IMG/VR virus record: IMGVR_UViG_3300045988_174813
Length of the DNA stretch: 64,000 bases
Source of the DNA: a virus
Strand: one strand, 5' to 3'
Below the pieces are notes generated by a model. That model made no database searches and was not told the origin of the DNA. It was given only the letters and a program-made list of their open reading frames with translations. The translations under genes were made by a program, and so were the position numbers. The first letter of the stretch is position 1; each line of letters starts with the position of its first letter. This document shows positions 32,647 through 63,946 of this stretch, piece after piece.

Positions 32647-32647
32647 T

Positions 32648-36398: not shown

Positions 36399-36405
36399 TC
36401 TATAT

Positions 36406-36489: not shown

Positions 36490-36496
36490 GTAAAAT

Positions 36497-36525: not shown

Positions 36526-36559
36526 ATATACATAAGATGAAGAAAGGAAAGAAAATCTA

Positions 36560-36775: not shown

Positions 36776-36778
36776 GTT

Positions 36779-36855: not shown

Positions 36856-37239
36856 TGCGTATAGCTTAGTTGGTAAAGCAAATAAAAATTATTAGAGCCT
36901 TGGATAGTTTACCTTAGATAAGTTTGGATTTTAGTTAGTTTTGAGTAAAGACCCTTACAGCAAACATTCTAATATTTTTGGACTTATAATCCCGTGGTCG
37001 GTGGTTCGAGTCCACCTCAGACAGCCTGCGTGGTATGTCAGGTAGCTCAGTTGGCTAGAGCACGAAAATTATTTTGTGGGTCTTGTTTTATGTTTTGTTG
37101 GATTGGTACTCCTTAGTAAATAAAGGCGCGGGACTGCAATCTTTGAAAAAAGAATGTGATATAATAGATACTGTCGAGCGACCTCGGTAGGCTTGACCCC
37201 AAGTTCGGCTGGATTATCCAGCTCGCGCCTTGTATTTAT
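36855..37239 (+). other. cluster of unpaired tRNA half-molecules plus a structured element
   Basis: 5' half 36855-36880, 3' half ~36978-37024 (loop CTTATAA, T arm GGTGG-TTCGAGT-CCACC), 5' half 37036-37062; helix AAGGCGCG/CGCGCCTT 37124-37230. Confidence 0.4.
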
Positions 37240-37315
37240 GGATGGTTATCTCAACTGGAAGAGAGCTCGCCTTACACGCGAGAGGTTAGAAGTTCAAGTC
37301 TTCTACTATCCACCA
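37240..37315 (+). tRNA. tRNA-Val (UAC)
   Basis: Acceptor GGATGGT/ACTATCC, anticodon arm CTCGC-CTTACAC-GCGAG, T arm AGAAG-TTCAAGT-CTTCT, CCA. Confidence 0.85.
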
Positions 37316-37602
37316 TAGATTACCACTTGTTAGATTGTTATCCTCCTGAGACGTCAGCTAGTTCTGGCAATCAATAAGTGAATAATCTACGTCCAATATC
37401 TCACTCACGACGTAAAACTCTTGTGAGGTCGCAAAGGAGAGATGCGTGAGCGGGTCTCACTCCAGACTGCGTTAGGTCGAAAAGACGTCTAGCTCAACCT
37501 TTTTCTTTGTCTGTTCTTTTAGTGGAAGTATCGAAAAATGAACGGCAGAAACGTTTCGAGGTTCGAGTGGTTTCCTTGGGAGGACCGAAAACCACTCACT
37601 AT
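37316..37602 (+). ncRNA. ~290-nt ORF-free structured spacer
   Basis: Helices GTGAG/CTCAC ~37446-37460 and GTGGTTT/AAACCAC ~37567-37594; GACGTC-AGCT boxes at 37351 and 37484. Confidence 0.35.
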
Positions 37603-37679
37603 GCTTCCATACCCCAATAGGTAGAGGGGAATGGCTCAAACCCATTGTAGTCTCAGTTCGAATCTGAGTGGAAGTACCA
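37603..37679 (+). tRNA. tRNA with anticodon CAA but a short (class I) variable arm
   Basis: Acceptor GCTTCCA/TGGAAGT, anticodon arm AATGG-CTCAAAC-CCATT, 5-nt variable region, T arm CTCAG-TTCGAAT-CTGAG, A73, CCA. Confidence 0.65.
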
Positions 37680-37765
37680 TTGGCAGTTTACCACCTGCCG
37701 TCGATTTTTTTCTTTAGCATATGATAAGTTATGACGTTCTTATCTGAAATAAAAACGTCATCTAT

Positions 37766-37840
37766 GGGAGATTAGCCTAGTGGTTCAGGCAGTCGGCTGT
37801 TAACCGACCTACAGGTGTTCAATTCACTTATTTCCCGCCA
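37766..37840 (+). tRNA. tRNA-Asn (GUU)
   Basis: Acceptor GGGAGAT/ATTTCCC, anticodon arm GTCGG-CTGTTAA-CCGAC, T loop TTCAATT, G73, CCA. Confidence 0.85.
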
Positions 37841-37935
37841 GAACGGTTGTTGGGCCAACCGTTTCGTTTCCTCTTTTTCTTTGTAGGGTTTGGCAGTTTC
37901 CTTGGGGTCTCACTTCTAAAAACTGCCTTTTATAT

Positions 37936-38009
37936 TGAGGATGTGGTGTAATGGTAGCATTCCTGTTTTGGGTACAGGCGGAGCCGTTCAAATCGGACAT
38001 CTTCAACCA
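37936..38009 (+). tRNA. tRNA-Pro (UGG)
   Basis: Anticodon arm CCTGT-TTTGGGT-ACAGG, acceptor TGAGGAT/ATCTTCA, CCA; weak T stem. Confidence 0.65.
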
Positions 38010-38035
38010 TATCAAAAAAATTTAGGAGGTATATT

Positions 38036-38308
38036 ATGCCTAAGGTACTCTTTGAATGTAATGATTGTGGCAAGTTCTATGGCAGTGAAGCGGAAGCTCT
38101 TGCTTGTGAAAAAGCTCATGCTAGTGAACGCACGCGTAAGGAAAAGCTTCAGGCTGAAAAGAAAGCTCGTTTGGAAGCTATCCGTGCACAGTATGAAAAG
38201 CTTCTTGAAGATATTCGCAAGTTCAATGAGGACTATGCGGAACCTGCAACAATGAGTTATACTGGTGCACTTAGTAAGGTGTTGGATAGTTTTTTCAAGT
38301 TGTTCTAA
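38036..38308 (+). CDS. zinc-ribbon / coiled-coil protein
   Basis: AGGAGG RBS; CNDCG..C start, K/E-rich helix. Confidence 0.55.
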   Translation: MPKVLFECNDCGKFYGSEAEALACEKAHASERTRKEKLQAEKKARLEAIRAQYEKLLEDIRKFNEDYAEPATMSYTGALSKVLDSFFKLF

Positions 38309-38403
38309 GTGAATCATTGAATAAGATATAAAGACGCATAACAGCAATACATTATATAAATATTTTTTGAAAATATATTATGGAAATGCGTCTTGGTTTA
38401 TAT

Positions 38404-38478
38404 AGGAGCGTCGCCAAGTGATTAAGGCACGGGACTTTGACTCCCGCATCGTGCGTTTGAATCGCACCGCTTCTGCCA
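38404..38478 (+). tRNA. tRNA-Gln (UUG)
   Basis: Acceptor AGGAGCG/CGCTTCT, D arm GCCA-AGTGATTA-AGGC, anticodon arm CGGGA-CTTTGAC-TCCCG, G73, CCA. Confidence 0.85.
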
Positions 38479-38558
38479 GATAGATTGAATAAATCGTCTA
38501 ATTCAAGTAGGTTATAAGATAGTCTGCTAATTTCCGTTCAGCAGGAGCGCAGAAAGAT

Positions 38559-38586
38559 AGATATAAGACCTAATATATCTTTTGTT
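38559..38586 (+). terminator. stem-loop plus T run
   Basis: AGATATA-8 nt-TATATCT, then TTTTG. Confidence 0.45.
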
Positions 38587-38601
38587 CAATCAACCTAAAA
38601 T

Positions 38602-38630
38602 TTGAATAATTTCAAAATATATTGTATAAT
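38602..38630 (+). promoter_or_regulatory. sigma-A type promoter
   Basis: TTGAAT-17-TATAAT. Confidence 0.65.
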
Positions 38631-38665
38631 ATATACATAAAGTAAAGAAGAAAGGAAACACTAAA

Positions 38666-39037
38666 ATGAAAACCTATCCTATTGAGAAGTACAAGTTCAT
38701 TATCCTTCCTGAGCAGAAGAAAGTCATTGCGCTTACTTCGTATGCTGGTAAAACTGTAAAGGGTGTTGCCGTGTGCAGTGAACATGATGAATTTGATATT
38801 GAAACGGGCAAACGGCTTGCTGCCGCGCGAGCCAATGTAAAGGTAGCAATGAAGCGTAAGGCGCGTGCCGAGAAGAAGCTGGCATACTTTGATAAAATTA
38901 TTGAAGATGTCGAGCGTGAGTATCATGAGCTTGAAGGTTATGCTTATGATGCTGGCGAACGATGGGAAAACGCGATTGATGAACTGGCTGGTGTGCTGAA
39001 TGATGTTGGCGCGCTTGAGCCGATGGATATTGAGTAA
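38666..39037 (+). CDS. hypothetical protein
   Basis: GAAAGGAAA RBS; 123 aa. Confidence 0.55.
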   Translation: MKTYPIEKYKFIILPEQKKVIALTSYAGKTVKGVAVCSEHDEFDIETGKRLAAARANVKVAMKRKARAEKKLAYFDKIIEDVEREYHELEGYAYDAGERWENAIDELAGVLNDVGALEPMDIE

Positions 39038-39048
39038 GGAGTAAATTT

Positions 39049-39645
39049 ATGGGTCGGTGCGAAAGTAAGTATTGTGAAAAATGTGGGTGTTATGTGCCTG
39101 AGGGAGAGACAGCGTGTGTTTCTTGTGGGTATGATCCTACTCCAAAGCCTGTGCGCCGACCTGATCCTCTTGCAGATATGTATGCGCGAGACCCTTGGGC
39201 GATAGCGCAGTATCATACTCCTTTACCCATGGATTACGCACAACTGGTGAATGTGGCACCGAAGGTAAGACAGATGACTCTGAATGAAGTGCTTGATGAG
39301 TTGAAAATGGAAGATAAGTATGAGCGGTCCGCGCGAGCAATGAGTCAGATTTTTTGTTCAACTGCTCAAGCCTCTGAAGCTTTTACTCAACTTGCACGAG
39401 ACCATCAAGATGCGCAGAAACAGGTAATATTGCATGAATTTCTTTGGGCAAAAGGCGGAAAGGGCAATTCTTCAATAGTCACAACTCCAAATTGTATCAA
39501 AAATGAGATGGATAGAAATTGTTTGGAACTTTGTGAATATTGTTCTTTGGAACAAGAGAGAAAAGATATATATACTCACAGGATTATTAGAACATACAAA
39601 TGTTTGAAACATCCTCATGTGTCTTATATAAGTGTAATCAACTAA
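39049..39645 (+). CDS. zinc-ribbon protein
   Basis: CEKCG..CVSCG N-terminus; 198 aa. Confidence 0.55.
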   Translation: MGRCESKYCEKCGCYVPEGETACVSCGYDPTPKPVRRPDPLADMYARDPWAIAQYHTPLPMDYAQLVNVAPKVRQMTLNEVLDELKMEDKYERSARAMSQIFCSTAQASEAFTQLARDHQDAQKQVILHEFLWAKGGKGNSSIVTTPNCIKNEMDRNCLELCEYCSLEQERKDIYTHRIIRTYKCLKHPHVSYISVIN

Positions 39646-39647
39646 AT

Positions 39648-39741
39648 GGGCGTCTAATCCTAATTGGCTAAGGAAATAGTCTTGAAAACTATTAGTAGCA
39701 TCGTAAGGTGTGTCTCGGTTCAAGTCCGAGGGCGCTCGCCA
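39648..39741 (+). tRNA. tRNA-Ser (UGA)
   Basis: Anticodon arm ATAGT-CTTGAAA-ACTAT, long variable arm, T arm CTCGG-TTCAAGT-CCGAG, G73, CCA. Confidence 0.8.
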
Positions 39742-39743
39742 TG

Positions 39744-39856
39744 AATAGAATAGTAGGGTTAGCCTGTTCCGTGGTGATACGCGGGTCGCACCTTTGAGAA
39801 CGCCTTGTATACGGGTAAAACAGAGCACAAGCCGGCAATGTTCTCTCTATTCTATT
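39744..39856 (+). ncRNA. ~115-nt structured spacer closed by a 10-bp helix
   Basis: AATAGAATAG (39744) pairs with CTATTCTATT (39847). Confidence 0.35.
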
Positions 39857-39862
39857 TTATAT

Positions 39863-39950
39863 GCGGAGTAAATCCAGAAGGTCTGGAGCCTACCTGCTAA
39901 GTAGTGCGTAGTCGTAAGGCTATATGAATCGTTTTCATTGCTCCGCGCCA
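39863..39950 (+). tRNA. atypical tRNA-Ser (GCU)-like
   Basis: Acceptor GCGGAGT/GCTCCGC, loop CTGCTAA, long variable region, CCA; T loop lacks TTC and the D arm is aberrant. Confidence 0.45.
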
Positions 39951-39953
39951 TAT

Positions 39954-39996
39954 GCCAGAGATTGGTGTTGAGTGGGTTCGAATCCCACCGCTGGCA
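39954..39996 (+). other. acceptor/T-arm minihelix (tRNA lacking D and anticodon arms)
   Basis: GCCAGAG-11 nt-GTGGG-TTCGAAT-CCCAC-CGCTGGC-A; no CCA. Confidence 0.4.
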
Positions 39997-40073
39997 TCGA
40001 GGGCTTTTGCAATAAGCCCAAGAGATTGCAATCATGTATATTGGGAGGAGTTGAGACCCTACCCAATATATAT

Positions 40074-40148
40074 GCCTTCGTAGTATAATGGCTATTACTT
40101 CGGATTTGTAACCCGAAGATAGGTGTTCAATTCACCTCGAAGGCTCCA
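40074..40148 (+). tRNA. tRNA-Thr (UGU)
   Basis: Acceptor GCCTTCG/CGAAGGC, loop TTTGTAA, T arm AGGTG-TTCAATT-CACCT, CCA. Confidence 0.8.
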
Positions 40149-40648
40149 TTACCGCACGGATGGCCATGGTTCCAATATGACGGTATTACTTCTATATTGA
40201 AGGTTTGGTGCGGTATATAAATGAATATGGGTCTAAATTCAAATGGTAGAGCCTTCATTTGAATAACAAAGTGTGATAAATGTGAACAGATAGAGCGCTA
40301 AGCGCACGGGTCTTCTAGGGGCCTTCTCTATCATCTATGCTCTAATAGTTTAGTAGGAAAAATACCGGCATCGTTGCCGGAGAGAGCGGTTCGAATCCGT
40401 GAAGGGGCCGTGGTTCTTCCACCACGAAGAGAAGCGGGTGGTTTCCACCGTTAGGAAACTAAGATACCGAGTGACACGTGGTATCTATGGGAGGATACGT
40501 TGACTTCCACTGTTGGTCTCCTCAACAGTAATGTAGATGGAGTGACATCCGGAAAAGAGCGGAATAGCGCATTCGACGTTGTGATGTGCGCCATAGGTAT
40601 ATGGCCGGAAAAAAGATACCCATCCCGTCTGCGAGGACGGGAGCCTAT
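40149..40648 (+). ncRNA. ~500-nt ORF-free structured spacer (large ncRNA candidate)
   Basis: Helices TACCGCAC/GTGCGGTA 40151-40215, GATACC/GGTATC 40463-40485, CTGTTG/CAACAG, CCCGTC/GACGGG 40623-40640; holds a tRNA 5'-half-like copy at 40339. Confidence 0.4.
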
Positions 40649-40729
40649 CCTCTAATAGCAAAGTGGTAATGCATACCATCCCAAGTTTACGTAAGAAGGT
40701 AACCATTGGTTCGAGTCCAATTTAGAGGA
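40649..40729 (+). tRNA. tRNA-like gene with an enlarged anticodon region
   Basis: Perfect acceptor CCTCTAA/TTAGAGG, D arm GCA-AAGTGGTAA-TGC, T arm ATTGG-TTCGAGT-CCAAT; TACC..GGTA encloses 20 nt; no CCA. Confidence 0.4.
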
Positions 40730-40730
40730 C

Positions 40731-50208: not shown

Positions 50209-50988
50209 ATGGATAGAAAGAAATATAAATGGATTGTAATCGGGCTACTGATTGTAGTTCTGTTGTCGTATTTGATTACTAGTGCGCGAGCCACAAATGA
50301 GCCTAATGGATATGTGGTTAGTGAGACAACATTGTATAGTGGGCCAAGCTATAATGCGAGTAGTTATACAACACTTAGTGTGGGGACAGAGCTTTGTGTA
50401 TATGGACGATATAACCAATGGTATGAAGTTGGTTGGAATGGAAAGACTGGGTATGTGTTGAGTGAGTATGTGTCTATTGACCATAAGCAAGACTACACAA
50501 TTACTATTGATGCAACACCTGTGCCTATTGCTCCGGTAGCTACTCCATTCAATAAGCCAATGGAGCCCGCGCCTAGCGAGCCGACTACTACTACACTAAC
50601 TCCTACTCCTACTTCTACTTTTACGCCTTCGGGTGATACCTCTATTGTAGAAAGTGCAGAAGCCTATCTTGGTGTCCCCTATAAATGGGGTGGAACCACT
50701 GATAAAGGTATGGATTGTAGTGGTTTTGTCCAGAAAGCTTACGAAGATGCAGGCTACTCCATTGGACGCACCACCCAAATTCAGGCTTTTGAAGGTAAAG
50801 AAGTAGAAGACTATGCGCCTGGCGATATTTTATGTTTCGGACGTAGTAAATGGAACATCTTCCACACAGGAATATATATTGGTGATGGGAAGTTTATTCA
50901 TTCGTCCTCGCCAGAAGGTGTTGTTGTGAGCGAGCTTGATGGGTATGGATTGAAACTTATTATGGCAAGGAGAATAAGTGAAGAATGA
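50209..50988 (+). CDS. secreted SH3 + NlpC/P60 (C40) peptidoglycan endopeptidase
   Basis: N-terminal TM/signal, SH3-like ..Y.GPS......L.VG....Y......WYEV..NGKTGYV; Pro/Thr linker; GVPYKWGG..GMDCSGFV..H.GIYIG.GKFIH. Confidence 0.8.
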   Translation: MDRKKYKWIVIGLLIVVLLSYLITSARATNEPNGYVVSETTLYSGPSYNASSYTTLSVGTELCVYGRYNQWYEVGWNGKTGYVLSEYVSIDHKQDYTITIDATPVPIAPVATPFNKPMEPAPSEPTTTTLTPTPTSTFTPSGDTSIVESAEAYLGVPYKWGGTTDKGMDCSGFVQKAYEDAGYSIGRTTQIQAFEGKEVEDYAPGDILCFGRSKWNIFHTGIYIGDGKFIHSSSPEGVVVSELDGYGLKLIMARRISEE

Positions 50989-51230
50989 AAGTTCAAGAAG
51001 CAAATAAAAATCGGTGTAGTTTTTGTGCTCTCAAAAAAGGCGATTGTTTCCGAAAAGGAACTGATATTTATATGAAAGTAGATACTTTTTATGCGCCTAC
51101 GGCTAATCGTGCTAACCCTGATGCTCCTCAAGTTGCTTGTAATGCTGTGAATTTGGCAAATGGAAATTTTGGAAATATTGATGTTTATGAAGGCGTAACT
51201 TTTTGCCCTGATGCGGTTGTTAGTTTTTGA
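50985..51230 (+). CDS. small paralog-family protein (member 1 of 6)
   Basis: F..LK.GD.F......YMK......N.V.L..G.F pattern. Confidence 0.55.
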   Translation: MKVQEANKNRCSFCALKKGDCFRKGTDIYMKVDTFYAPTANRANPDAPQVACNAVNLANGNFGNIDVYEGVTFCPDAVVSF

Positions 51231-51236
51231 GGTAAG

Positions 51237-51473
51237 ATGATGAAAATTGAATGTAATAAGAAAACTATTGTTCGGTTTCGAGACTTAAAGGCTGGTGATT
51301 TGTTCCGCGAGATTGACGCGCAGGCTGAGGCAATTATGATGAAGACTGCGGATGTATTTCGGTCTGATGGTTCGATGTTGAATGCGGTTTATTTGTCTGA
51401 TGGCGAGTTTGAACGGTTCGGAGAGATGGAAGAAGTAGAGCTACTACCCAGCGTAGTGGTAGTAAATAATTAA
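51237..51473 (+). CDS. small paralog-family protein (2 of 6)
   Basis: RFRDLKAGDLFRE..MMKT...LNAVYLSDGEF. Confidence 0.55.
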   Translation: MMKIECNKKTIVRFRDLKAGDLFREIDAQAEAIMMKTADVFRSDGSMLNAVYLSDGEFERFGEMEEVELLPSVVVVNN

Positions 51474-51476
51474 GCT

Positions 51477-51695
51477 ATGAAAATTAGTTCTAAGTTAGAA
51501 ACTACCATTCCTTTTAGAGATTTAAAATGGGGAGACTGTTTCCGATCTAAGGTTAGGAATAATGCTATCTTTATCAAAATTCCTTTTACTGAGGGCGGAG
51601 ATTATAATGCCGTTATACTGGAAACTGGTTTGCTGGCTTGCTTCCCATCAAATGAACAAGTTGAGCCTCTGCCTAATGCTAAAGTTGTAATCTAA
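51477..51695 (+). CDS. small paralog-family protein (3 of 6)
   Basis: PFRDLKWGDCFRS..FIKI...YNAVILETGLL. Confidence 0.55.
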   Translation: MKISSKLETTIPFRDLKWGDCFRSKVRNNAIFIKIPFTEGGDYNAVILETGLLACFPSNEQVEPLPNAKVVI

Positions 51696-51752: not shown

Positions 51753-52223
51753 ATGGTTGTGCTTTGTATTATTGTAGCAGTGTTAGTCGGTTTCTTGATT
51801 TGGATTGTTTTTTCAGCATTGAATAAGGATGATGAGAATGAAGAAATCTTCAGAGATTTTTTTAGATTTTTCCGAAAAATCGACCCACACTCAGATGGTA
51901 TTACTCTTACCTTTAAGCAATTTCTCGCTTTCTATAATGTTTCTTCTTCAAGTTGGCAAGAATATAACGGTTGTAATATCTACTTTGTTTATAGGAATCA
52001 CAATGAAAGGTTCCTCATTAAATTCCAAACTTATGGCGACCAGATGAAGTATCGTTTGTGGCGACGCAATAAGAAAAAGCGTGAAGCGACACTTCAGAAG
52101 GTACACGAGACAAATAGATTTATTGAGAGCATTCGTCAGCAGTGTGTCCGTGCAGAACAAGAGGCAACGAAAGAAGCACAGCAGTTGCGTGAGCGTATTA
52201 TTAGCGAATTGGAGGAGAAATAA
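51753..52223 (+). CDS. TM-anchored protein, paralog of 47731-48243
   Basis: See 47731; same length and architecture. Confidence 0.6.
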   Translation: MVVLCIIVAVLVGFLIWIVFSALNKDDENEEIFRDFFRFFRKIDPHSDGITLTFKQFLAFYNVSSSSWQEYNGCNIYFVYRNHNERFLIKFQTYGDQMKYRLWRRNKKKREATLQKVHETNRFIESIRQQCVRAEQEATKEAQQLRERIISELEEK

Positions 52224-52468
52224 TGAGTTCAATTACTAGTGATATTCTTCGTATCATTGATTGCGCGGGCGCCGACCCAACGTTTACCGAAGTCTTTGCA
52301 CGGCTAGGTTATGCAACTCACATCGAAGTAAAGAATACTCTTCGATGGCTTGAGCGTAAGGGACTTATTGTGTCTTACTATTGCCCATCAATGCGTCAGT
52401 CTCGTTATTATCTCTCTGCGCAAGCTGAACATTTGATGGATGAAATTGACGGGTGCGCGCACGAGTAA
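52223..52468 (+). CDS. winged-helix protein
   Basis: ..FTEVFARLGYATHIEVKNTLRWLERKGLIV.. Confidence 0.45.
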   Translation: MSSITSDILRIIDCAGADPTFTEVFARLGYATHIEVKNTLRWLERKGLIVSYYCPSMRQSRYYLSAQAEHLMDEIDGCAHE

Positions 52469-54069: not shown

Positions 54070-54519
54070 ATGTCCACTACTACTACTACTACTACTACTA
54101 CCGAAAAGTCCCCGAAGCTCACGCAGAAGCTCTTCTTCCAGAACGTCCTTGCGATGCTCCACGGAGAGGACACTGAGTTCACTGCCGAAGAGATGGCTGA
54201 ATTTGCCGAGGCTCGCATCGCCAAGATTGATGAAACCAACGCGAAGAATCGTGAGGCTGACCGTAAGCCTACCGCTAAGGAGCTCGCCACCCAGGAAGAG
54301 AACGCTCGTCTGCGCGAAGCCCTTGTTGGTATTGTGCGCGAAGCTACTGAGCCTCTGGTGCGTGATGCCATTGCCGAGGCTCTTGGTGTGTCCCCGCAGA
54401 AGGTTAGTGTTCTTGCGAAGAATGCTATTGCGTCTGGTGAGATTGCCAAGGCTGAGACGAAGGTGGATGGCAAGAAGCGCGTTGCTTATGTCGTTGCCGG
54501 TGAGACTACTGGCGAGTGA
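54070..54519 (+). CDS. poly-Thr-headed helical protein
   Basis: AAAGGAAA RBS, ATG 54070; MSTTTTTTTTTEK.. Confidence 0.55.
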   Translation: MSTTTTTTTTTEKSPKLTQKLFFQNVLAMLHGEDTEFTAEEMAEFAEARIAKIDETNAKNREADRKPTAKELATQEENARLREALVGIVREATEPLVRDAIAEALGVSPQKVSVLAKNAIASGEIAKAETKVDGKKRVAYVVAGETTGE

Positions 54520-57636: not shown

Positions 57637-57670
57637 GGAGAGCAAGAGATTGCTCTCCTTTTTTGTTTTT
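57637..57670 (+). terminator. rho-independent terminator closing the plus-strand arm
   Basis: GGAGAGCA-6 nt-TGCTCTCC, then TTTTTTGTTTTTT. Confidence 0.8.
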
Positions 57671-58084
57671 TAGAAAGAGATACTTGCGCGCCCTCCATAA
57701 AAATGTATCATCACTACATTTAGTGCCTCGCGCGAAGCCTATATAGAACTTCTATTGAGTAAATCTATGGAGCCCGCGCGAAGCAATCAAATTTCCATCA
57801 AGCAAACCCAGGAGCCCGCGCAGTTTCAATTCTACTACTAAGTCTACTTCTAGACTAAATCAAAATTTGAATATTTTTATTATGGGATTTCTACCTTTTC
57901 AATATAAAATAGATAGAAGATAGATTAGAAAAAAATTTTTATATATCTTGTAGGGAAAAATTTAGAGAGAATAGTAAAGAAAATCTACTTTATAAATGTA
58001 ATAGGGAAATTTATTTAGTAAATACATTTATAAATACATTATATATATAGTAGTAGTAGAAGTCTCCTACGGAGCCTTTTTTGG

Positions 58085-58160
58085 AAAACAACGCCCCCTT
58101 GAGGGGGGTGAACCTCGACCGCGCGCAGTCGCGGGTGAGGTTCATCGGGGGGTGCACACA
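58085..58160. other. nested GC-rich hairpins in an AT-rich repeat zone
   Basis: GCCCCC-ttga-GGGGGG; GAACCTC[GACCGCG-cgcagt-CGCGGGT]GAGGTTC. Confidence 0.4.
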
Positions 58161-58169
58161 ATTAGATAA

Positions 58170-58640
58170 ATAATTCTAAATGTAATTATAATGTATGTCT
58201 ATCGCGCGAGGCGCACAGGGACATCAAAGTAGAGTATATAATTTATAGTGTAATTTTGAGTGTAGTGGGCGCCAAATGGATGACTAAGTGGATTACTAAG
58301 TGAGCTACTAAATTATAAGTGTAATTCTAATGTAAGTTATAAATGTAATTATAAGTGTAAATAAAATGTGGGCGTAGGTAGTACGCGTGGTGAAGTTTAT
58401 AGAGTAATTTATAAATGTAATTATAATGTATGTTATGAATGTGAGTAAAATGAAGGGGCGCGCGAAGTAGGGGGCAAACACCGGTGCCTTGAATGGTAAG
58501 GCGTAGGTTATAGGTTATAGGTTATAAATTATAAGTTATAAGTTATAAATGTAATTTATAAATGTAATTCTAAATGTATGTTGTAAATGTATGTTGTAAA
58601 TGTAAGTAAAATGTGTGTTCTAAATGTAATAATGCCCCAA
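58170..58640. repeat. array of short (A/G)TGTAA(T/G)T motifs interrupted by GC islands
   Basis: e.g. TAAATGTAATTATAATGTATGT at 58176 and 58412; GTTATAGGTTATAGGTTATAAATTATAAGTTATAAGTTATAAATGTAA at 58506. Confidence 0.7.
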
Positions 58641-58707
58641 AAATTTTTCTTTCCGCCCCATATAGGGGGATGCTTCGGAGGCTCTTTGGGGGGTAGGGAT
58701 TGAGGGA

Positions 58708-58736
58708 TATATATCCCAAATTTTTTCCAAAGTCAA
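58708..58736 (-). promoter_or_regulatory. possible minus-strand promoter reading into the repeat zone
   Basis: TTGACT-17-TATATA. Confidence 0.4.
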
Positions 58737-58810
58737 ATTTTTTTTACACAATAAATTTCTTCCAAAATTTAGATTTTTTATATAAAAAATAGCAAAACGT
58801 ATACTAAAAT

Positions 58811-58839
58811 TTGACAAGTTCAAAAATGTATGGTATAAT
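58811..58839 (+). promoter_or_regulatory. sigma-A type promoter with no ORF behind it
   Basis: TTGACA-17-TATAAT with TG extension. Confidence 0.6.
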
Positions 58840-58845
58840 AAAAGG

Positions 58846-58912
58846 GGAAGGATATGTGTCCCGCGCGAGAAAAAAAATAAAAGTAAAACCTCGGAGTGAT
58901 CCGAGGTTTAAA
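58846..58912 (+). ncRNA. candidate ~65-nt small RNA
   Basis: Starts after the promoter; ends at AACCTCGG-agtgat-CCGAGGTT plus TAAATTT; only an 8-codon ORF. Confidence 0.35.
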
Positions 58913-59014
58913 TTTCTCCCATAAAAGGGTGGGGTTTTTCGGTTTTTCTGGCTTTTACAGGCGTTGTCAAATTTTATGTTATGTCAAATTTTTTCTAGAC
59001 AAATAAAAAAATTC

Positions 59015-59052
59015 CAAAATAAAAATAGCAGAGTAAAATACTCTGCTATTTT
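59015..59052. terminator. terminator after the initiator-like gene
   Basis: ATAGCAGAGT-aaaat-ACTCTGCTAT flanked by A/T runs. Confidence 0.65.
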
Positions 59053-59071
59053 CTATATATAAAGTTGCAAC

Positions 59072-59557
59072 TTACTCTTCAACAATAGGAAGTTGGTTCC
59101 ATTTTTCCAAAAATTCGTGTTCAGGAATCTCTTTAGTAAGTAAGCCCTTGAGTTCATTATAAGTTACATTGCGCGGGCCGTTCTTAGTCTGTACTGTACG
59201 GACTTCTGGCTTTAGAAGAATATCTTCTGTGGTAAGCGGAGGGTCGTGAGGCGTTTCATAGAAATTGAGCTTCCCATCTTCCTCAATTATATACCCACAG
59301 TTTACTAGGTCTGCTGGCGCGCGCCGGGCAGCATCAACTGATAATCCATATACATTTGAAAAATCTCGTGGAGAATAATCTTTCTCATAGTTATTCTGAT
59401 TAGATGCAAGGTATAAGTATAGTTTGAATCCAGAGGGTGTAAGTAACCTCGCGGCAGTAGCTAATGCTTGACAGTCAATAGCAAGGTATTGCTTTTTTTC
59501 TGAGAGCGGATTAGAACGGTGGATAATGATAGTCTTTTGATTTTGATAGTGAGCCAT
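59072..59557 (-). CDS. winged-helix replication-initiator/organizer-like protein
   Basis: AAGGAG RBS; ..LTPSGFKLYLYLASNQ..Y.YSPRDFSNVYGLSVDAARRAPADLVNCGYI..; flanked by iteron arrays. Confidence 0.4.
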   Translation of the reverse strand: MAHYQNQKTIIIHRSNPLSEKKQYLAIDCQALATAARLLTPSGFKLYLYLASNQNNYEKDYSPRDFSNVYGLSVDAARRAPADLVNCGYIIEEDGKLNFYETPHDPPLTTEDILLKPEVRTVQTKNGPRNVTYNELKGLLTKEIPEHEFLEKWNQLPIVEE

Positions 59558-59611
59558 AGTGAGTACTCCTTTTTTGATAAAATAAAATGATAAACTACTG
59601 ATGATAGTGAG

Positions 59612-59665
59612 CCAGCTTTTGGCGAGCGCGCCTTAGCAAAGCGAGCCAGAAAAAGCTGGCTCATA
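59612..59665. repeat. 12-bp inverted repeat
   Basis: GAGCCAGCTTTT..AAAAGCTGGCTC. Confidence 0.6.
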
Positions 59666-59689
59666 TTTAGCTTTTTGCGCATATTTCTT

Positions 59690-59995
59690 TATATTACTTA
59701 TGTAAATTTTACATAAGGATGTAGGAAAATTTACATAAGGATGTAGGAAAATTTACATATACTTTGCTTATTTTTCGTTTTTTTATGGTCGCTATGCGCG
59801 GCTCCTATAGCTAAATTTACATAAGGGTTAGGAAAATTTACATATACTTTGGTATACCTTATGTAAGTTTTACATAAGGTTATGGCTAATTTTACATATA
59901 CCTATAGCTAGTTTTGCGTATACCTTATGTAAAATTTGCGTATACCTATAGCTAAATTTACATATACCTTATGTAAATTTTACATATACCCTCTT
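59690..59995. repeat. iteron field, core AAATTTACATA(A/T)
   Basis: >=12 copies in both orientations; 22-bp unit GGAAAATTTACATAAGGATGTA x2.5; palindromes CCTTATGTAAATTTTACATAAGG. Confidence 0.75.
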
Positions 59996-60008
59996 CTATT
60001 ATATATAT

Positions 60009-60037
60009 ATTATATCATAATTTTTAGAAAATTTCAA
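60009..60037 (-). promoter_or_regulatory. sigma-A type promoter facing the iterons and initiator gene
   Basis: TTGAAA-17-TATAAT. Confidence 0.6.
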
Positions 60038-60093
60038 ATTCTTCTCAGCTTTCGGGGATTACTCGTGCGCTCGCTCGATAGTATGCTACTTCT

Positions 60094-60122
60094 ATTATAT
60101 CATAAAATCTCCAAAAAATCAA
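60094..60122 (-). promoter_or_regulatory. sigma-A type promoter (tandem)
   Basis: TTGATT-17-TATAAT. Confidence 0.55.
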
Positions 60123-60388
60123 ATTTTCTGGCGCAGCTCCCCAGCTCTCAAAATTTGCCTATACTCCCCGCCCAGCTTTCCAGCTTCCAGCTTTCTTGCG
60201 CCCAAAATTTGACAGGCCTATCCAATGTTCTCCCTATGTGGTGCGCGCATCATAAAATTTGACACGCAACAAAATTTGCGTTGGTGGTTTACGATAATAA
60301 TGTTATGTAAACTTTAGTTGTGTGATGAATTAGTGATTTAGTGTGTTAGTAGTTTACTATGCTAAAGAAAATTTGACAAAAATGAAAA

Positions 60389-60409
60389 TCTAACCTAAGA
60401 TAGGTTAGA
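60389..60409. promoter_or_regulatory. 21-bp palindrome TCTAACCTA-N3-TAGGTTAGA (copy 1 of 7)
   Basis: Perfect 9+3+9; 9 nt from a weak TTGTCA-17-TAAACT element. Confidence 0.6.
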
Positions 60410-60411
60410 TT

Positions 60412-60446
60412 TTGGGGTAAAAGAAAAGAGGGAAAATTAGATTTCC
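60412..60446 (-). terminator. rho-independent terminator of the right-arm operon
   Basis: Minus strand GAGGGGGAAAT-ctaa-TTTTCCCTC, then TTTTCTTTT. Confidence 0.7.
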
Positions 60447-60619
60447 CCCTCAATAGAATAATTTTCGTATTTATAATGTAAATCAATCTGGTATTCTTTT
60501 TCACACTGCGGGCAATAATAGATACAACATTCTGTATGATAATCATCACCATATAAATCATCATACGTATCATCAAGAGCAAGAACCGCACCACAATTCG
60601 GGCATCTAATCTCTTCCAT
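60437..60619 (-). CDS. zinc-ribbon protein
   Basis: CPNCG..CPQCE; 60 aa. Confidence 0.55.
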   Translation of the reverse strand: MEEIRCPNCGAVLALDDTYDDLYGDDYHTECCIYYCPQCEKEYQIDLHYKYENYSIEGEI

Positions 60620-60781
60620 TTATTCTTCATCCTCCAAACAAGAATCATTATTTTCACCAGTAGGAAAATAGAAACTTCCTTTCCAGAGAGGACAATTATT
60701 AATACATTCCCCTTTAAGGCAATCATTTACGTTGCATCTCTCTATAAAGAAAATAATTTCCTCATTACTTAGATTTTTCAT
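60620..60781 (-). CDS. small Cys-rich protein
   Basis: ATG 60781 (TAAATG coupling); 53 aa; below the ORF-track cutoff. Confidence 0.45.
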   Translation of the reverse strand: MKNLSNEEIIFFIERCNVNDCLKGECINNCPLWKGSFYFPTGENNDSCLEDEE

Positions 60782-60901
60782 TTACTCTTCCTCCTCATAC
60801 TCACACGGTGGAATATCTCCCGCGCACTTTGCTTCAAACTTACAAGTTGGATAACTTTCGTCCTCTTCGCACCAGCAATATGGACAATCCTTGCAACTCA
60901 T
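60782..60901 (-). CDS. small acidic Cys-rich protein
   Basis: AAAGGAGG RBS, ATG 60901; MSCKDCPYCWC..EEEE. Confidence 0.5.
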   Translation of the reverse strand: MSCKDCPYCWCEEDESYPTCKFEAKCAGDIPPCEYEEEE

Positions 60902-60926
60902 ACACTTACCTCCTTTAGATGATACA

Positions 60927-60955
60927 ATTATATCGCGCCCGCGCCATAAAGTCAA
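60927..60955 (-). promoter_or_regulatory. right-arm promoter
   Basis: TTGACT-17-TATAAT. Confidence 0.6.
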
Positions 60956-60972
60956 GAAAAACATTTCCATAA

Positions 60973-60991
60973 CCTAACCTATCTTAGGTTA
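60973..60991. promoter_or_regulatory. palindrome copy 2 of 7 (19-bp core)
   Basis: CTAACCTA-TCT-TAGGTTAG; 17 nt upstream of the -35. Confidence 0.6.
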
Positions 60992-61041
60992 GAAATGCAC
61001 CAAAAACTTTCCCTCGCTAAAGTATTAGCAAGGGAAAATTT

Positions 61042-61899
61042 TCAAATATCGGCGCGTCCTACGATGCGGAACGGGAAAGCAATAATTCCGTAGGAAAATT
61101 TTCCTTTCGTGCGCTTGTGGATAAGGGAAAAAATTTCGGTTTCTATCTCGGCATCATTCAATGCCGTGTGCGCTTCTTCAAAATCAGTTTCCCCAGTGAT
61201 AAACCGGAAAGACGTTTCCGCGCTTGTCTTGTAGTATTTCCCACTTTCGGTAATCCAACCGTTAGCTTTGCACGCTTCGCGGTAATCGTCGCTATCAAGA
61301 ATATGCTCACAAGCCAAACCCCAGAGGTCAAACAGAGGATACGACCGACCACGGAAACGGAACACTTCCGGCTCATATTCTTTCTTGGAGGTATAGCGCG
61401 TCTTGCTTGCAATGTTGTCGCAGATGCGGTTCTGGAGGGCTTCCCAGTTGTGGAAGTCTGCGCTATACAGTTTGGAAATATAAAGCTCGGTAAACGGGAT
61501 TGCTTTCTTGAAGTCAAAGTTGGCGTTATAAGCTCCGACGCCTACCACGTCGGCGAGGTCTGCTTCAAGTTTTGCGGACGCTTCGCGCCACGTTGCAAGC
61601 TCAATCGTTCCCGCTTCCAGAGCTTCAAGGTAAATCGGACGCTTAGACGCATAGTAAGCAGTATTGAAAATCGCAGGAACGGAGAAAATCTCGGTAATGA
61701 GATAGTTACGGCGGCGATAAACGTTACCCTTGGCGTCGCAAATCGTCCAGCCCAAATCATAAATAAGCGGCTTTGCGATAGCTACGGATTTTTTCGCTTC
61801 CGCGGACAGCTCCGACGCATAGGGAAGCGTTGCGGTTTCGCAATCGAGGACGCAATAGTATTTGCGGCGGCGGTCAAGTTTCTTCTCGGCAATAGACAT
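61042..61899 (-). CDS. DEDD-family 3'-5' exonuclease (DnaQ-like)
   Basis: AAGGAG RBS, ATG 61899; VLDCETA (ExoI), AYNANFDF (ExoII), HTALNDAEIE (ExoIII). Confidence 0.8.
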   Translation of the reverse strand: MSIAEKKLDRRRKYYCVLDCETATLPYASELSAEAKKSVAIAKPLIYDLGWTICDAKGNVYRRRNYLITEIFSVPAIFNTAYYASKRPIYLEALEAGTIELATWREASAKLEADLADVVGVGAYNANFDFKKAIPFTELYISKLYSADFHNWEALQNRICDNIASKTRYTSKKEYEPEVFRFRGRSYPLFDLWGLACEHILDSDDYREACKANGWITESGKYYKTSAETSFRFITGETDFEEAHTALNDAEIETEIFSLIHKRTKGKFSYGIIAFPFRIVGRADI

Positions 61900-61954
61900 A
61901 ATATATACTCCTTTTCTGTCGGGGCGTAACTTCTTTTCCCTCCTGACATTATAT

Positions 61955-61983
61955 ATATTACCACACCCTATACAGGAAGTCAA
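61955..61983 (-). promoter_or_regulatory. right-arm promoter
   Basis: TTGACT-17-TAATAT. Confidence 0.55.
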
Positions 61984-62000
61984 GAAAAATGTGTCCGGCT

Positions 62001-62021
62001 TCTAACCTATCTTAGGTTAGA
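62001..62021. promoter_or_regulatory. palindrome copy 3 of 7
   Basis: TCTAACCTA-TCT-TAGGTTAGA; 17 nt upstream of the -35. Confidence 0.65.
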
Positions 62022-62044
62022 AAAATTCCAAAAAAAGCAGGGAA

Positions 62045-62416
62045 TTACTCCCCTGCTTTTTCTTCCTCTGCCTTTTCCGCCTTGGCTTTTTCCTTTTCGG
62101 CTTTCTTCCGTTCCCGCTCGGCTTCTTTGCGCTTCCGTTCGGCTTCCTTGGCTTCGGCTTTCTCCGCCTTGTCTGCGAGCTTGGCGCGATACTCGTTAGC
62201 GAGCGCGTAACCGTCCGTGCCGTCCTCTTCGTCGGCTTTCTTCGGGATAATCACCGACAGCTTCACCCACCTATCCTCCCCAGCTTCGACAGTCGGGAAC
62301 ATAAGCGTTCCGGAAGCGGTCTGCATGACCTCTTCGCCGTCCTCCGTGAGAACTTCCACCAGACGCGCAAGCATGCGCGCACGCAGAGCATCATTCACAT
62401 TTACTTTCTTTTCCAT
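62045..62416 (-). CDS. protein with K/E/A-rich tail (architecture like 25321-25635)
   Basis: AAGGAGG RBS; globular N-terminus, then KAEKAEAKEAERKRKEAERERKKAEKEKAKAEKAEEEK. Confidence 0.55.
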   Translation of the reverse strand: MEKKVNVNDALRARMLARLVEVLTEDGEEVMQTASGTLMFPTVEAGEDRWVKLSVIIPKKADEEDGTDGYALANEYRAKLADKAEKAEAKEAERKRKEAERERKKAEKEKAKAEKAEEEKAGE

Positions 62417-62446
62417 TTGGGATACCTCCTTTATCTTTGTGAGTAT

Positions 62447-62475
62447 ATGATACTATATATTGAGGGAAAAGTCAA
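62447..62475 (-). promoter_or_regulatory. right-arm promoter
   Basis: TTGACT-17-TATCAT; leader nearly identical to 63611-63648. Confidence 0.6.
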
Positions 62476-62492
62476 GAAAAACTTTCGGTAGT

Positions 62493-62513
62493 TCTAACCT
62501 ATGTTAGGTTAGA
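62493..62513. promoter_or_regulatory. palindrome copy 4 of 7
   Basis: TCTAACCTA-TGT-TAGGTTAGA; 17 nt upstream of the -35. Confidence 0.65.
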
Positions 62514-62531
62514 TATAGATGGCTCGCGCCA

Positions 62532-62750
62532 TCAATGAATAGTGAGTTCTACATCGAGTTTTTCGACAAAATCAGAGTTCTCAAAAGAAGCGAAACTACC
62601 ATCCGCAATATTTACTGTATTGCACAAAATATTTTTTGACATGCAAAATTTCGTCCGCATATAGAGTTCGCCTTCCCAAGAAAAAACTTCTCCAACTTTG
62701 ACGAGTTCAAATACCATATTGCTCTTTCTTCTCGTATCATTGACCTGCAT
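62532..62750 (-). CDS. small paralog-family protein (4 of 6)
   Basis: AAGGAGG RBS; close to 63728-63946 (MQV.DTR.K...F...K.GEVF.WEG.L.MR..). Confidence 0.6.
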   Translation of the reverse strand: MQVNDTRRKSNMVFELVKVGEVFSWEGELYMRTKFCMSKNILCNTVNIADGSFASFENSDFVEKLDVELTIH

Positions 62751-62778
62751 TATACGTTCCTCCTTTATTTTGTAATCT

Positions 62779-62807
62779 TATTATATCAAATCTCTTTAGT
62801 TGTGTCA
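62779..62807 (-). promoter_or_regulatory. right-arm promoter
   Basis: TTGACA-17-TATAAT. Confidence 0.6.
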
Positions 62808-62813
62808 ATTGTA

Positions 62814-62834
62814 GTCTAACCTATATTAGGTTAG
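62814..62834. promoter_or_regulatory. palindrome copy 5 of 7
   Basis: TCTAACCTA-TAT-TAGGTTAGA; 6 nt upstream of the -35. Confidence 0.65.
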
Positions 62835-62846
62835 AATAGTTGGGTG

Positions 62847-63065
62847 TCAGAATGACACCCGTGCGGGAATGGGAATAACTTCCGTATCGACATTGTAAGA
62901 GTGAAAAACGCCGTCGGAAAGAGAAACTGCATTGAGGTAGCAATCTTCTTTTTCGTCGAAGACAACTTCGGTTTTCATAAGCAGACGCTTATCCGCATTG
63001 TTTGCAAGAAGAAAGCATTCACCTTTAGACAATTCCCCAAAAGAATTACTAGTTTCAATAATCAT
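62847..63065 (-). CDS. small paralog-family protein (5 of 6)
   Basis: F.ELSKGECF......LMKT....YLNAVSLSDGVF. Confidence 0.6.
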   Translation of the reverse strand: MIIETSNSFGELSKGECFLLANNADKRLLMKTEVVFDEKEDCYLNAVSLSDGVFHSYNVDTEVIPIPARVSF

Positions 63066-63093
63066 ATTATTTCCTCCTTTTCTTTATGGTCGT

Positions 63094-63122
63094 ATTATAC
63101 TATATTATACGCGCATTGTCAA
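63094..63122 (-). promoter_or_regulatory. right-arm promoter
   Basis: TTGACA-17-TATAAT. Confidence 0.6.
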
Positions 63123-63128
63123 CTAATC

Positions 63129-63149
63129 TCTAACCTATATTAGGTTAGA
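63129..63149. promoter_or_regulatory. palindrome copy 6 of 7
   Basis: TCTAACCTA-TAT-TAGGTTAGA; 6 nt upstream of the -35. Confidence 0.65.
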
Positions 63150-63172
63150 AGCCTCCAAAAAATTGTCTACCC

Positions 63173-63610
63173 TCAACCGAGGGCAGACAAAATTTCCATA
63201 ATCTGCGACGGGTCAAAACTGTATTCTCCCCAGTTTTCGCGGTTCTTCTCTTCATCATCGAAAAGAATATCTTCCGCGCCGAGCTTGAAAGTTTCTTTCG
63301 GTGTGCCATACTCTACGACGTGGATAGCGTCCCACTTGACAGAGTGGAGATGCTTGTCAAGCCATTTCTTTTTGGCTTCGCGCACGGCTTCAAGATAGGC
63401 TTTCGAGCTTGTCTTGCTTCCCCACGAGATAACGCCGATAGTGTAGCCTGCGCGGTGGAGCTTGTTGAGCTTGCGCGCGAGCGTGCGCATATCACCGAGC
63501 GGTCGCGCCTGGGCATAGGGTCTTGGATTTTCTGCGCGAAGCATAGAAAGCCAATTTTCCACGGCGTAAAGGTCTGAAATTGTGCCGTCCATATCGAACC
63601 AAATCGTCAT
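63173..63610 (-). CDS. HAD-superfamily phosphatase, 5'(3')-deoxyribonucleotidase-like
   Basis: FDMDGT (DxDxT), ..ISWGSK.., ILFDDEEKN. Confidence 0.6.
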   Translation of the reverse strand: MTIWFDMDGTISDLYAVENWLSMLRAENPRPYAQARPLGDMRTLARKLNKLHRAGYTIGVISWGSKTSSKAYLEAVREAKKKWLDKHLHSVKWDAIHVVEYGTPKETFKLGAEDILFDDEEKNRENWGEYSFDPSQIMEILSALG

Positions 63611-63642
63611 TTCGTTGTGTCCTCCTTTATCTTTGTGAGTAT

Positions 63643-63671
63643 ATGATACTACATAATGAGTAAAAAGTCAA
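63643..63671 (-). promoter_or_regulatory. right-arm promoter
   Basis: TTGACT-17-TATCAT. Confidence 0.6.
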
Positions 63672-63688
63672 GAAAAAATTGTGTGGTT

Positions 63689-63709
63689 TCTAACCTATAT
63701 TAGGTTAGA
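63689..63709. promoter_or_regulatory. palindrome copy 7 of 7
   Basis: TCTAACCTA-TAT-TAGGTTAGA; 17 nt upstream of the -35. Confidence 0.65.
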
Positions 63710-63727
63710 TTATGATGGCTTATGCCA

Positions 63728-63946
63728 TCAATGAATAATGAGTTCTGTATCGAGTTTTTCAACAAGCTCGGAATTTGCAAAGTAAACCAACATGCCATCC
63801 GCAATATCGACTGTATTACACAAAGTATCACCAACTTTGCAAGGTCGTATCCTCATCCAAAGTTTACCCTCCCAACAAAAAACTTCTCCTTTTTTGATTG
63901 CTTCAAAAAAAACGTGTTCTTTCATTCTCGTATCTTTGACTTGCAT
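63728..63946 (-). CDS. small paralog-family protein (6 of 6)
   Basis: AAGGAGG RBS; see 62532. Confidence 0.6.
   Translation of the reverse strand: MQVKDTRMKEHVFFEAIKKGEVFCWEGKLWMRIRPCKVGDTLCNTVDIADGMLVYFANSELVEKLDTELIIH

Follow-up and report, generated by a model that had tools for sequence, protein, structure and literature searches.

What is the function of a short palindrome that recurs between the end of one small gene and the promoter of the next? This question is raised by the right arm of the window, i.e., the whole 64,000-nucleotide (64-kb) stretch of DNA from the IMG/VR virus record IMGVR_UViG_3300045988_174813 that was analysed here. The window carries 16 tRNA genes (block 30206–40730), including a suppressor tRNA with the anticodon CUA at 34598–34673, and its plus-strand open reading frames (ORFs) are interrupted by TAG, in contrast to the right-arm ORFs, which contain no in-frame TAG, as the original prediction, made from the sequence alone, had stated. 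Thus, the window comes from a TAG-recoded gut phage whose early region, written in the standard code, is the right arm. We propose that the palindrome, TCTAACCTA-N3-TAGGTTAGA, is likely to be a DNA-level operator of a lineage-specific symmetric dimer that would be phased to, and communicate with, RNA polymerase.

A scan of the window tolerating up to two mismatches returned exactly seven sites, all in the minus-strand right arm, against a mean of 0.01 in dinucleotide-preserving shuffles. The half-site TAGGTTAGA occurs 13 times in the 64 kb, each time within one of the seven palindromes and nowhere else, which bears out the earlier statement that the motif is confined to these sites. The positions first given for the copies were also recovered, except that the fifth begins at 62815 rather than 62814, and the variable 3-nt centres (AGA, TCT, TGT and TAT) were confirmed at all sites. 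In this phage the palindrome has a 9-3-9 geometry with half-site centres 12 bp apart, the dyad required of a dimer operator. The seven copies, with their centres on the plus strand and the gap to the following −35 hexamer, are:

60389–60409, copy 1, centre AGA, exact match and terminal in the array, with no more than a weak promoter-like site after it, gap 9 nt
60973–60993, copy 2, centre TCT, one mismatch at the promoter-proximal outermost base, gap 17 nt
62001–62021, copy 3, centre TCT, upstream of the exonuclease promoter, gap 17 nt
62493–62513, copy 4, centre TGT, upstream of the K/E-tail gene's promoter, gap 17 nt
62815–62835, copy 5, centre TAT, upstream of a 72-amino-acid (aa) paralogue, gap 6 nt
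63129–63149, copy 6, centre TAT, upstream of a 72-aa protein gene, gap 6 nt
63689–63709, copy 7, centre TAT, upstream of the nucleotidase promoter, gap 17 nt

At the terminal copy, flanking A4/T4 extend the stem to 13 bp (60385–60413) with a T-rich tail. Only this extended copy passed a terminator scan, which the other six failed, and it could also stop transcription in both directions where the array ends. The extended arrangement is also present in the related phages L003 and L004, and in L004 the G variant of copy 2 is retained at the orthologous sites.

We found minus-strand sigma-70-like promoters, scoring 9–12 of 12, downstream of six of the seven palindromes. The original prediction had placed every copy just upstream of such a promoter; this holds for the six, while only a weak site follows 60389. 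The promoters, all on the minus strand, are:

60351–60379, minus strand, weak promoter-like site TTGTCA-17-TAAACT after the terminal palindrome, overlapping a AAAATTTGAC repeat
60927–60955, minus strand, TTGACT-17-TATAAT, with TTTTT directly upstream of the −35
61955–61983, minus strand, TTGACT-17-(TG)gTAATAT, promoter of the exonuclease gene
62447–62475, minus strand, TTGACT-17-TATCAT
62780–62808, minus strand, TTGACA-17-TATAAT, 12/12, with an extended −10 TG
63094–63122, minus strand, TTGACA-17-TATAAT, 12/12
63643–63671, minus strand, TTGACT-17-TATCAT

The core promoters are near consensus (TTGAC[A/T]-17-TATAAT, often with TG). Read along the minus strand, a unit consists of a gene stop, a G+C-rich hairpin, the palindrome, the gap, the −35, 17 nt, the −10, AAAGGAGG and the ATG. 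The gap was re-measured as 17 nt at 60973, 62001, 62493 and 63689 and as 6 nt at 62815 and 63129, exactly as predicted. Within the 17-nt spacers the first ~11 nt are unrelated between units, and only TTTTTC beside the −35 recurs. The distance between the stop codon upstream and the palindrome is variable (12–121 nt).

The original prediction called for a motif scan beyond the window, and this was possible on the 122,617-bp contig ena:ERZ27229728:k119_309751 (L097), found through the nucleotidase protein, which is 100% identical to the window over 10 kb and hence its source contig. In the full array, 22 palindromes are packed into 9 kb, or roughly one for each monocistronic early cassette, and 15 of them lie past the right end of the window. 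The gap to the −35 is 6 nt in 12 units, 16–17 nt in eight (a class that includes two promoters with TTGCAA/TTGCAT −35 hexamers read by eye), 27 nt in one and 9 nt at the terminal copy.

Two further IMG/VR contigs share the palindrome, with 11 and 16 copies, one-mismatch variants included. We compared 19 orthologous site pairs among the window phage and two sister phages. With 18 arm positions per site, every arm position compared is unchanged (342/342). Identity is 63% in the 3-nt centre, 68% over the 40 nt upstream of the palindrome, and 82% over the 60 nt downstream, promoter included. Within no genome did we find compensatory arm variants, so the arms are invariant and not covarying, as had been claimed. 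Such identity of the arms against diverged flanks and unrelated 17-nt spacers argues for selection on arm sequence and on spacer length, with spacer sequence free.

The same layout extends well beyond these phages. The exonuclease-like protein encoded at 61042–61899 has 2,962 homologues at E ≤ 1e-5 in metagenomes, of which we sampled four metagenomic contexts and 79 viral-contig loci; the set used for spacing comprises 34 non-redundant loci. In the fetched lineages the slot between terminator and −35 is filled by a lineage-specific inverted repeat, constant within each lineage and different between lineages. Across the 34 loci (646 sites) we count 13 or more distinct palindromes, most of which follow the pattern TTAGAnnT-N3-AnnTCTAA. 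The dyad in most relatives is 8-3-8, with half-site centres 11 bp apart, and in this common frame the window motif reads CTAACCTA-N3-TAGGTTAG. Other operator types include TTAGACTA-N3-TAGTCTAA, TTAGACGT-N3-ACGTCTAA, TTAGACTT-N3-AAGTCTAA, TTAGATGT-N3-ACATCTAA, TTAGGTGT-N3-ACACCTAA, TTGGATGT-N3-ACATCCAA, TTATCTGT-N3-ACAGATAA, TTGGACGT-N3-ACGTCCAA, TAATACGT-N3-ACGTATTA, TGTAGTAGTCTG-N2-CAGACTACTACA and GGAACAA-N1-TTGTTCC. Between lineages the loop varies from 1 to 5 nt, and one operator base differs between phages whose exonucleases are 87% identical. Lineages without this kind of palindrome bear other upstream dyads, e.g., GTTAATTAGA-N4-ACGT-N4-TCTAATTAAC.

For each of the 646 palindromes, the best sigma-70-like promoter within 120 nt downstream was taken, and the distance was measured from the palindrome centre to the first base of the −35, a method that itself imposes no period. 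A promoter was found for 544 palindromes, 500 of these within 53 bp, distributed as follows:

17–20 bp, 310 sites
21–26 bp, 1 site
27–30 bp, 113 sites
31–36 bp, 3 sites
37–40.5 bp, 25 sites
43–46 bp, 1 site
47–51 bp, 37 sites

We determined that 485 of the 500 sites fall into four distance windows that span 38% of the possible positions, with a period of ~10.2 bp. The phasing is kept lineage by lineage despite the differences in operator sequence and length: the distances are 17/28/38 in the window group, 18/28 in L012, 19/29 in L013 and L014, 19/29–30/40 in L015 and 19/50 in L072–L080. In the 27–30 class, an A/T tract (86–93% A+T; TTTTT in the window group) lies 5–9 bp upstream of the −35. 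The original prediction had read the 11-bp step between the two gaps as one helical turn, and that reading now extends to a clade-wide quantisation of spacing with different palindromes.

One lineage, L005 (IMGVR_UViG_3300045988_141968, 6176–9326), carries AATTA(G/A)ACCT-N3-AGGT(T/C)TAATT. All seven copies there have one G-arm and one A-arm, in either orientation, and TTCATA repeats phased at 11 bp occupy the gap between palindrome and promoter.

Taken together, the dyad, the invariance within a genome, the concerted change between lineages and the retention of one helical face over up to four turns argue that the palindrome is the operator of a dimer communicating with RNA polymerase. A symmetric dimer, most likely phage-encoded and lineage-specific, would bind the two half-sites, whose centres lie one helical turn (11–12 bp) apart. 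The operator would be held on one face of the helix relative to a sigma-A/sigma-70-type early promoter, its centre ~17–19, 28, 38 or 50 bp upstream of the first −35 base (approximately −53, −63, −73 and −85), where the bound protein could touch RNA polymerase through the alpha C-terminal domain (alpha-CTD) or sigma region 4. All ~22 monocistronic early cassettes would then be controlled as one regulon. This is in line with the original view of a dimeric DNA-binding-protein site phased to the early promoters of a regulon, which the indirect evidence of the arms, the separate terminators and the clade-wide phasing supports.

The sign of this putative control may be approached from the promoters. 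Being near consensus, they should fire before any phage protein is present, unless a factor is injected, which favours coordinated shut-off or negative feedback by an early product, comparable to the action of phi29 protein p4 at promoter A2c; we would give this mode an even chance. Sites as far upstream as −85 look more like class-I-type activation, a possible though less probable sign, and some other mode is unlikely. CRP class I sites lie at −61.5, −72.5, −82.5 and −92.5, with the alpha-CTD between the activator and sigma region 4, and protein p4 of phage phi29 activates promoter A3 and represses the strong A2c through the same alpha-CTD contact. As in these systems, a putative dimer site here lies upstream of the −35 on one helical face in steps of ~10–11 bp, and the A/T tract of the 27–30 class lies where the alpha-CTD docks in CRP complexes. 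Yet the positions in this clade (~−53, −63, −73 and −85) include ~−53, which CRP does not use, and, in contrast to both CRP and p4, ~20 promoters per genome share one operator.

A multi-copy phage operator is also known from the early region of the Streptomyces phage phiC31, whose repressor binds conserved inverted repeats (CIRs), 17 bp long, invariant and present in many intergenic copies. The likeness to the palindrome is an invariant inverted repeat in many intergenic early-region copies; the differences are that the phiC31 protein is the repressor of a temperate phage and that the early promoters there are not of the sigma-70 type. To our knowledge, quantised spacing has not been reported for the CIRs. 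The stoperators of Cluster A mycobacteriophages, bound by the L5/Bxb1 repressor, likewise provide ~20–30 copies of one short site per genome for one phage regulator, with a motif that varies with repressor specificity (PMC9283540, PMC6550527). However, stoperators are 13 bp long, asymmetric, monomer-bound and placed in one orientation in transcribed DNA, where they stop elongation and serve lysogenic immunity, whereas the sites described here are symmetric, phased and located between a terminator and the next promoter, and so do not qualify as stoperators; nor was any sign of lysogeny seen.

If each lineage has a private operator/regulator pair, these virulent code-recoded phages might use it for exclusion at the level of transcription, an idea that we regard as doubtful. 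A regulator made early would clamp RNA polymerase at, or shut, the whole set of ~20 early promoters when a sibling superinfects, would leave relatives that have another operator untouched, and the conflict would drive diversification into the at least 13 operator types. Alternatively, an adaptor delivered by the virion would give the phage a private UP element and so monopolise the host RNA polymerase.

As for the protein, a family of winged helix-turn-helix (wHTH) proteins of ~110–150 aa is encoded in or beside the arrays of most lineages, with one to four paralogues per genome. Its members combine one short and one long helix with a C-terminal winged helix, show weak to moderate matches to the MarR, TrmB, DUF7343 and IclR HTH families, and have homologues with precomputed MarR_2, TrmB, FaeA and HTH_5 domains. 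An AlphaFold2 model of one member (mean predicted local distance difference test score, pLDDT, of 68, and ~80 in the wHTH part) comprises a helix-turn-helix and a beta-hairpin wing, and in Foldseek it resembles many wHTH regulators (E 4e-3 to 2e-2). Three members belong to this phage:

L097 9176–9541, array wHTH copy of 121 aa, ~70 nt past the window, with its own palindrome and a TTGCAA-17-TGgTAATAT promoter
54070–54519, plus strand, wHTH paralogue with a long helix followed by the winged helix-turn-helix
23200–23565, plus strand, distant wHTH paralogue (E 3e-6 with a broadened family hidden Markov model)

This family is our best candidate for the binder of the palindrome, at less than even odds, with the array-encoded copy in the lead. 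Of the regulators first suggested, 23200 proved to be a distant member of the family and the option of a gene beyond the window is now represented by the array copy, while nothing links the ORF at 52223–52468 to the site. Scanned against Pfam and PHROG, neither the right-arm proteins nor these earlier candidates gave more than weak matches. The 161-aa ORF at 59072–59557 was rejected as the binder, as it resembles a replication initiator or DnaD-like loader beside iterons. The paralogue at 54070 starts with nine threonines (MSTTTTTTTTTEK; 54070–54105) derived from ACT repeats, and a leader of ~170 nt separates it from an upstream TTGAAG...TATAAT promoter-like site.

Several points weigh against the operator reading. 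Whereas the sites, their invariance, the promoters, the quantised spacing and the operator change between lineages are observed, we infer that a protein binds the palindrome, that the phage encodes this protein and that it touches RNA polymerase. The near-consensus promoters make an activator seem unnecessary, a repressor centred at −53 to −85 would be unusual, and the terminal copy is not followed by a good promoter. In L005 the distances from the quasi-palindrome to the next promoter are not quantised. Recombinational homogenisation could contribute to the invariance of the arms, and since sites within one genome are not independent, counts such as the 485 of 500 overstate the statistical support. 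The centre bases are often asymmetric and oriented with transcription (in L015 a G at the sites with both arms intact, with one C; in L012 mostly 'caa'), and therefore fit with the spread of whole modules by duplication. Finally, the recognition helix of the wHTH proteins does not covary cleanly with the operator: this helix reads STPKASALLRQ in the window group and STSKASALLRK in L014, with operators that are nonetheless different, and the helix of one paralogue is unchanged across three operator types. Partial covariation does occur, as the L012 and L018 proteins have NKAGAxAR in common and the same operator, and KGKFQYA is common to the two TTAGGTGT phages. As a means of identifying the regulator, helix–operator covariation was set aside, being contradicted elsewhere and confounded by the number of paralogues and by shared ancestry. 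It is suggestive in places and contradicted in others, and for that reason the assignment to the wHTH family stays tentative.

The alternative that survives best, though improbable, is that the palindrome and its promoter form only a recombination module, kept identical by duplication or homologous recombination and shuffling early ORFan cassettes with no dedicated binder. The model would be the promoter-early stem-loops (PeSLs), mobile regulatory cassettes of T4-type phages, in which a repeated stem-loop and strong sigma-70-like early promoter motifs flank small ORFan genes and delimit the segments that are inserted, deleted or replaced from one close relative to another (Arbiol et al. 2010, PMC2839356; Comeau et al. 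2014, PMC4122927). The right arm does act likewise. Each inter-palindrome segment holds one gene, with the exception of three tiny Cys-rich ORFs in one, and homology between the window phage and L003 and L004 breaks exactly at the palindromes, where indels start and stop. The sister phage L003 lacks the entire Zn-protein cassette (60410–60993), and, compared with L003 and L004, an additional 72-aa cassette is present in the window phage. As a side effect, whole cassettes are gained or lost at the identical palindrome-plus-promoter modules, and the transcription-oriented asymmetry of the centres also speaks for such a module. Yet homogenisation should keep the flanks alike, and here the arms are 100% identical with spacer and centre at 63–82%; nor does it account for spacer lengths that change in ~10-bp steps with free spacer sequence, or for the concerted change of all copies in each lineage, and a dyad with half-sites one turn apart is not needed for recombination. 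The stem-loop of PeSLs is, moreover, G/C-rich, variable and itself the terminator, whereas the window palindrome is A/T-rich, invariant, without a U tract, phase-locked and preceded by a separate terminator, and belongs not to a T4-type phage but to a TAG-recoded gut phage with a probable Bacillota host. Of the PeSL traits, then, a promoter in the motif and cassette exchange at the motif are present, and a stem-loop that acts as terminator is absent. The palindrome element combines traits of PeSLs, of multi-copy phage operators and of class I sites, and is a member of none of these groups.

In another sister phage (L096, ena:ERZ28565804 scaffold_87), the place after the exonuclease gene that the Zn-protein cassette holds in the window phage is taken by a 246-aa gene (12761–13501) with weak GIY-YIG and HTH_7 matches, possibly for a homing endonuclease. 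A cultured distant relative, Enterococcus phage EF1 (L095, MF001358.1), has a similar monocistronic early array with consensus promoters at 61–70 kb. In several of its units the −35 is overlapped by the hairpin that terminates the preceding gene (e.g., AAGGGCTTGACAAGC...GCCCTT), in a PeSL-like manner, and no recurrent invariant palindrome was found in this array.

A host-encoded factor, for example a global regulator or a nucleoid protein, could instead bind the palindrome, with palindrome types mirroring hosts. Early genes need to be expressed before any phage protein exists, and no phage regulator could be tied to the site. Yet relatives use at least 13 operator types, some one base apart at 87% exonuclease identity, and the exact palindrome occurs only six times in 185,579 species genomes, as single copies in terminator positions, with no host regulon visible. 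We consider a host factor quite improbable. A lead to a host regulon was likewise dropped, since the copies, located behind rpmA in Metabacillus and, in a Clostridium metagenome-assembled genome, between convergent genes, are chance hairpins.

It is very improbable that the palindrome acts in RNA, as a hairpin of a read-through transcript serving as terminator, attenuator, processing site or stabiliser. It does fold as a 9-bp hairpin of −9.2 kcal/mol, the terminal copy is extended to 13 bp, the same sequence stands in terminator position in the few bacterial genomes mentioned, and three of the seven upstream genes lack a canonical terminator, so that read-through is likely. However, only three of the nine pairs are G-C, no U tract follows, and four of the seven units have a canonical terminator upstream, which upholds the earlier view that the palindrome is not a simple terminator. 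No compensatory changes occur within a genome, and one orientation of the L005 quasi-palindrome would form an A-C mismatch. Above all, it is the distance to the downstream −35 that is quantised and the distance to the upstream gene that varies, a spacing for which there is no RNA reason. The terminators and related hairpins are:

60428–60451, minus strand, intrinsic terminator that closes the Zn-protein cassette; with respect to transcription it lies upstream of palindrome 1
61011–61034, minus strand, terminator hairpin downstream of the exonuclease gene, with AAAGTTTTT following; 17 nt separate the hairpin from palindrome 2 (read from the sequence)
62030–62063, minus strand, intrinsic terminator after the K/E-tail gene, before palindrome 3
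62518–62533, minus strand, GC hairpin that overlaps a 72-aa paralogue's stop codon, without a U tract (similar hairpins at 62842–62860 and 63714–63729)
63163–63190, minus strand, intrinsic terminator after the nucleotidase gene, before palindrome 6

Extrusion of the palindrome as a cruciform or hairpin, to act as a supercoil sensor or as a structural promoter element read by a phage RNA polymerase, can hardly be credited. Its stem and 3-nt loop do recall the promoters of the N4 virion RNA polymerase (stem of 5–7 bp, loop of 3 nt), in which conserved loop and stem bases direct a start ~11 nt downstream, but the sites are followed by a consensus sigma-70-type promoter and a correctly placed ribosome-binding site and ATG, the loop is free in sequence and 1 to 5 nt long between lineages, the dyad is symmetric and without polarity, and no virion RNA polymerase gene was noticed in the window, though without a dedicated search. 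Integron attC-like and REP/RAYT-like readings were dropped in view of the phase-locking to promoters and of a neighbourhood in which no recombinase was seen.

The cassettes that the proposed operator would control within the window are:

60437–60901, minus strand, Zn-protein cassette of three small Cys-rich (Zn-ribbon-like) ORFs (60782–60901, 60620–60781 and 60437–60619)
61042–61899, minus strand, DEDD-type exonuclease-like gene, the clade marker
62045–62416, minus strand, K/E-rich-tail protein, encoded beside the exonuclease gene in nearly all lineages
62532–63065, minus strand, two single-gene cassettes for 72-aa proteins (62532–62750 and 62847–63065), one of which is the cassette additional to those of L003 and L004
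63173–63610, minus strand, HAD/NT5C-like nucleotidase cassette
63728–63946, minus strand, 72-aa paralogue cassette, with its own palindrome and promoter just past the window end (L097 9580)

The 72-aa proteins belong to a PHROG 6570-like family of ~72–80 aa with at least six copies, three of them in tandem on the plus strand (50985–51695) and at least three as early-array cassettes on the minus strand (62532–62750, 62847–63065 and 63728–63946). Between the plus-strand genes and the early array lies a 2.7-kb, almost ORF-free hub (57650–60390) dense in other repeats. It includes TTATAAATGTAAT-like repeats of 12–13 bp at ~57980–58640, AAAATTTGAC repeats at 60150–60385 and 58806, and 22-bp iterons (AAATTTACATAAGGATGTAGGA) at 59690–59990, directly upstream of the 161-aa ORF at 59072–59557. 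As this ORF resembles replication-initiator and DnaD-like PHROGs, the iteron region is probably a replication origin. On the plus strand, 58811–58910 holds a perfect TTGACA-17-TATAAT promoter with TG and a ~24-nt hairpin (58886–58909) with no ORF between, and may specify a small RNA.

In blastn, the region had no match among GenBank phages, and tblastn retrieved only ~30%-identical Enterococcus phages and phAss-1. Theta ribozymes have been reported beside such tRNAs in recoded gut phages (PMC10879173). An Rfam scan of the window returned tRNAs only, and two of the tRNA calls are aberrant (36779–36855, with a 4-nt anticodon, and 40649–40730). We found no description of the palindrome element in the literature on recoded gut phages that was searched.

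The operator reading provides a simple regulatory grammar for a very large clade of uncultured phages, many members of which recode TAG. The TAG-free early genes are those that take over the host, and since the whole early regulon of a genome is flagged by a single short operator, the sequence suffices to annotate them. Short of experiments, a clearer natural demonstration of face-of-the-helix dependence than the quantised spacing could hardly be had, and the palindrome element also illustrates the exchange of gene cassettes in these phages. Once the protein is found, the diversity of operators would constitute a ready-made set of orthogonal operator/regulator pairs.

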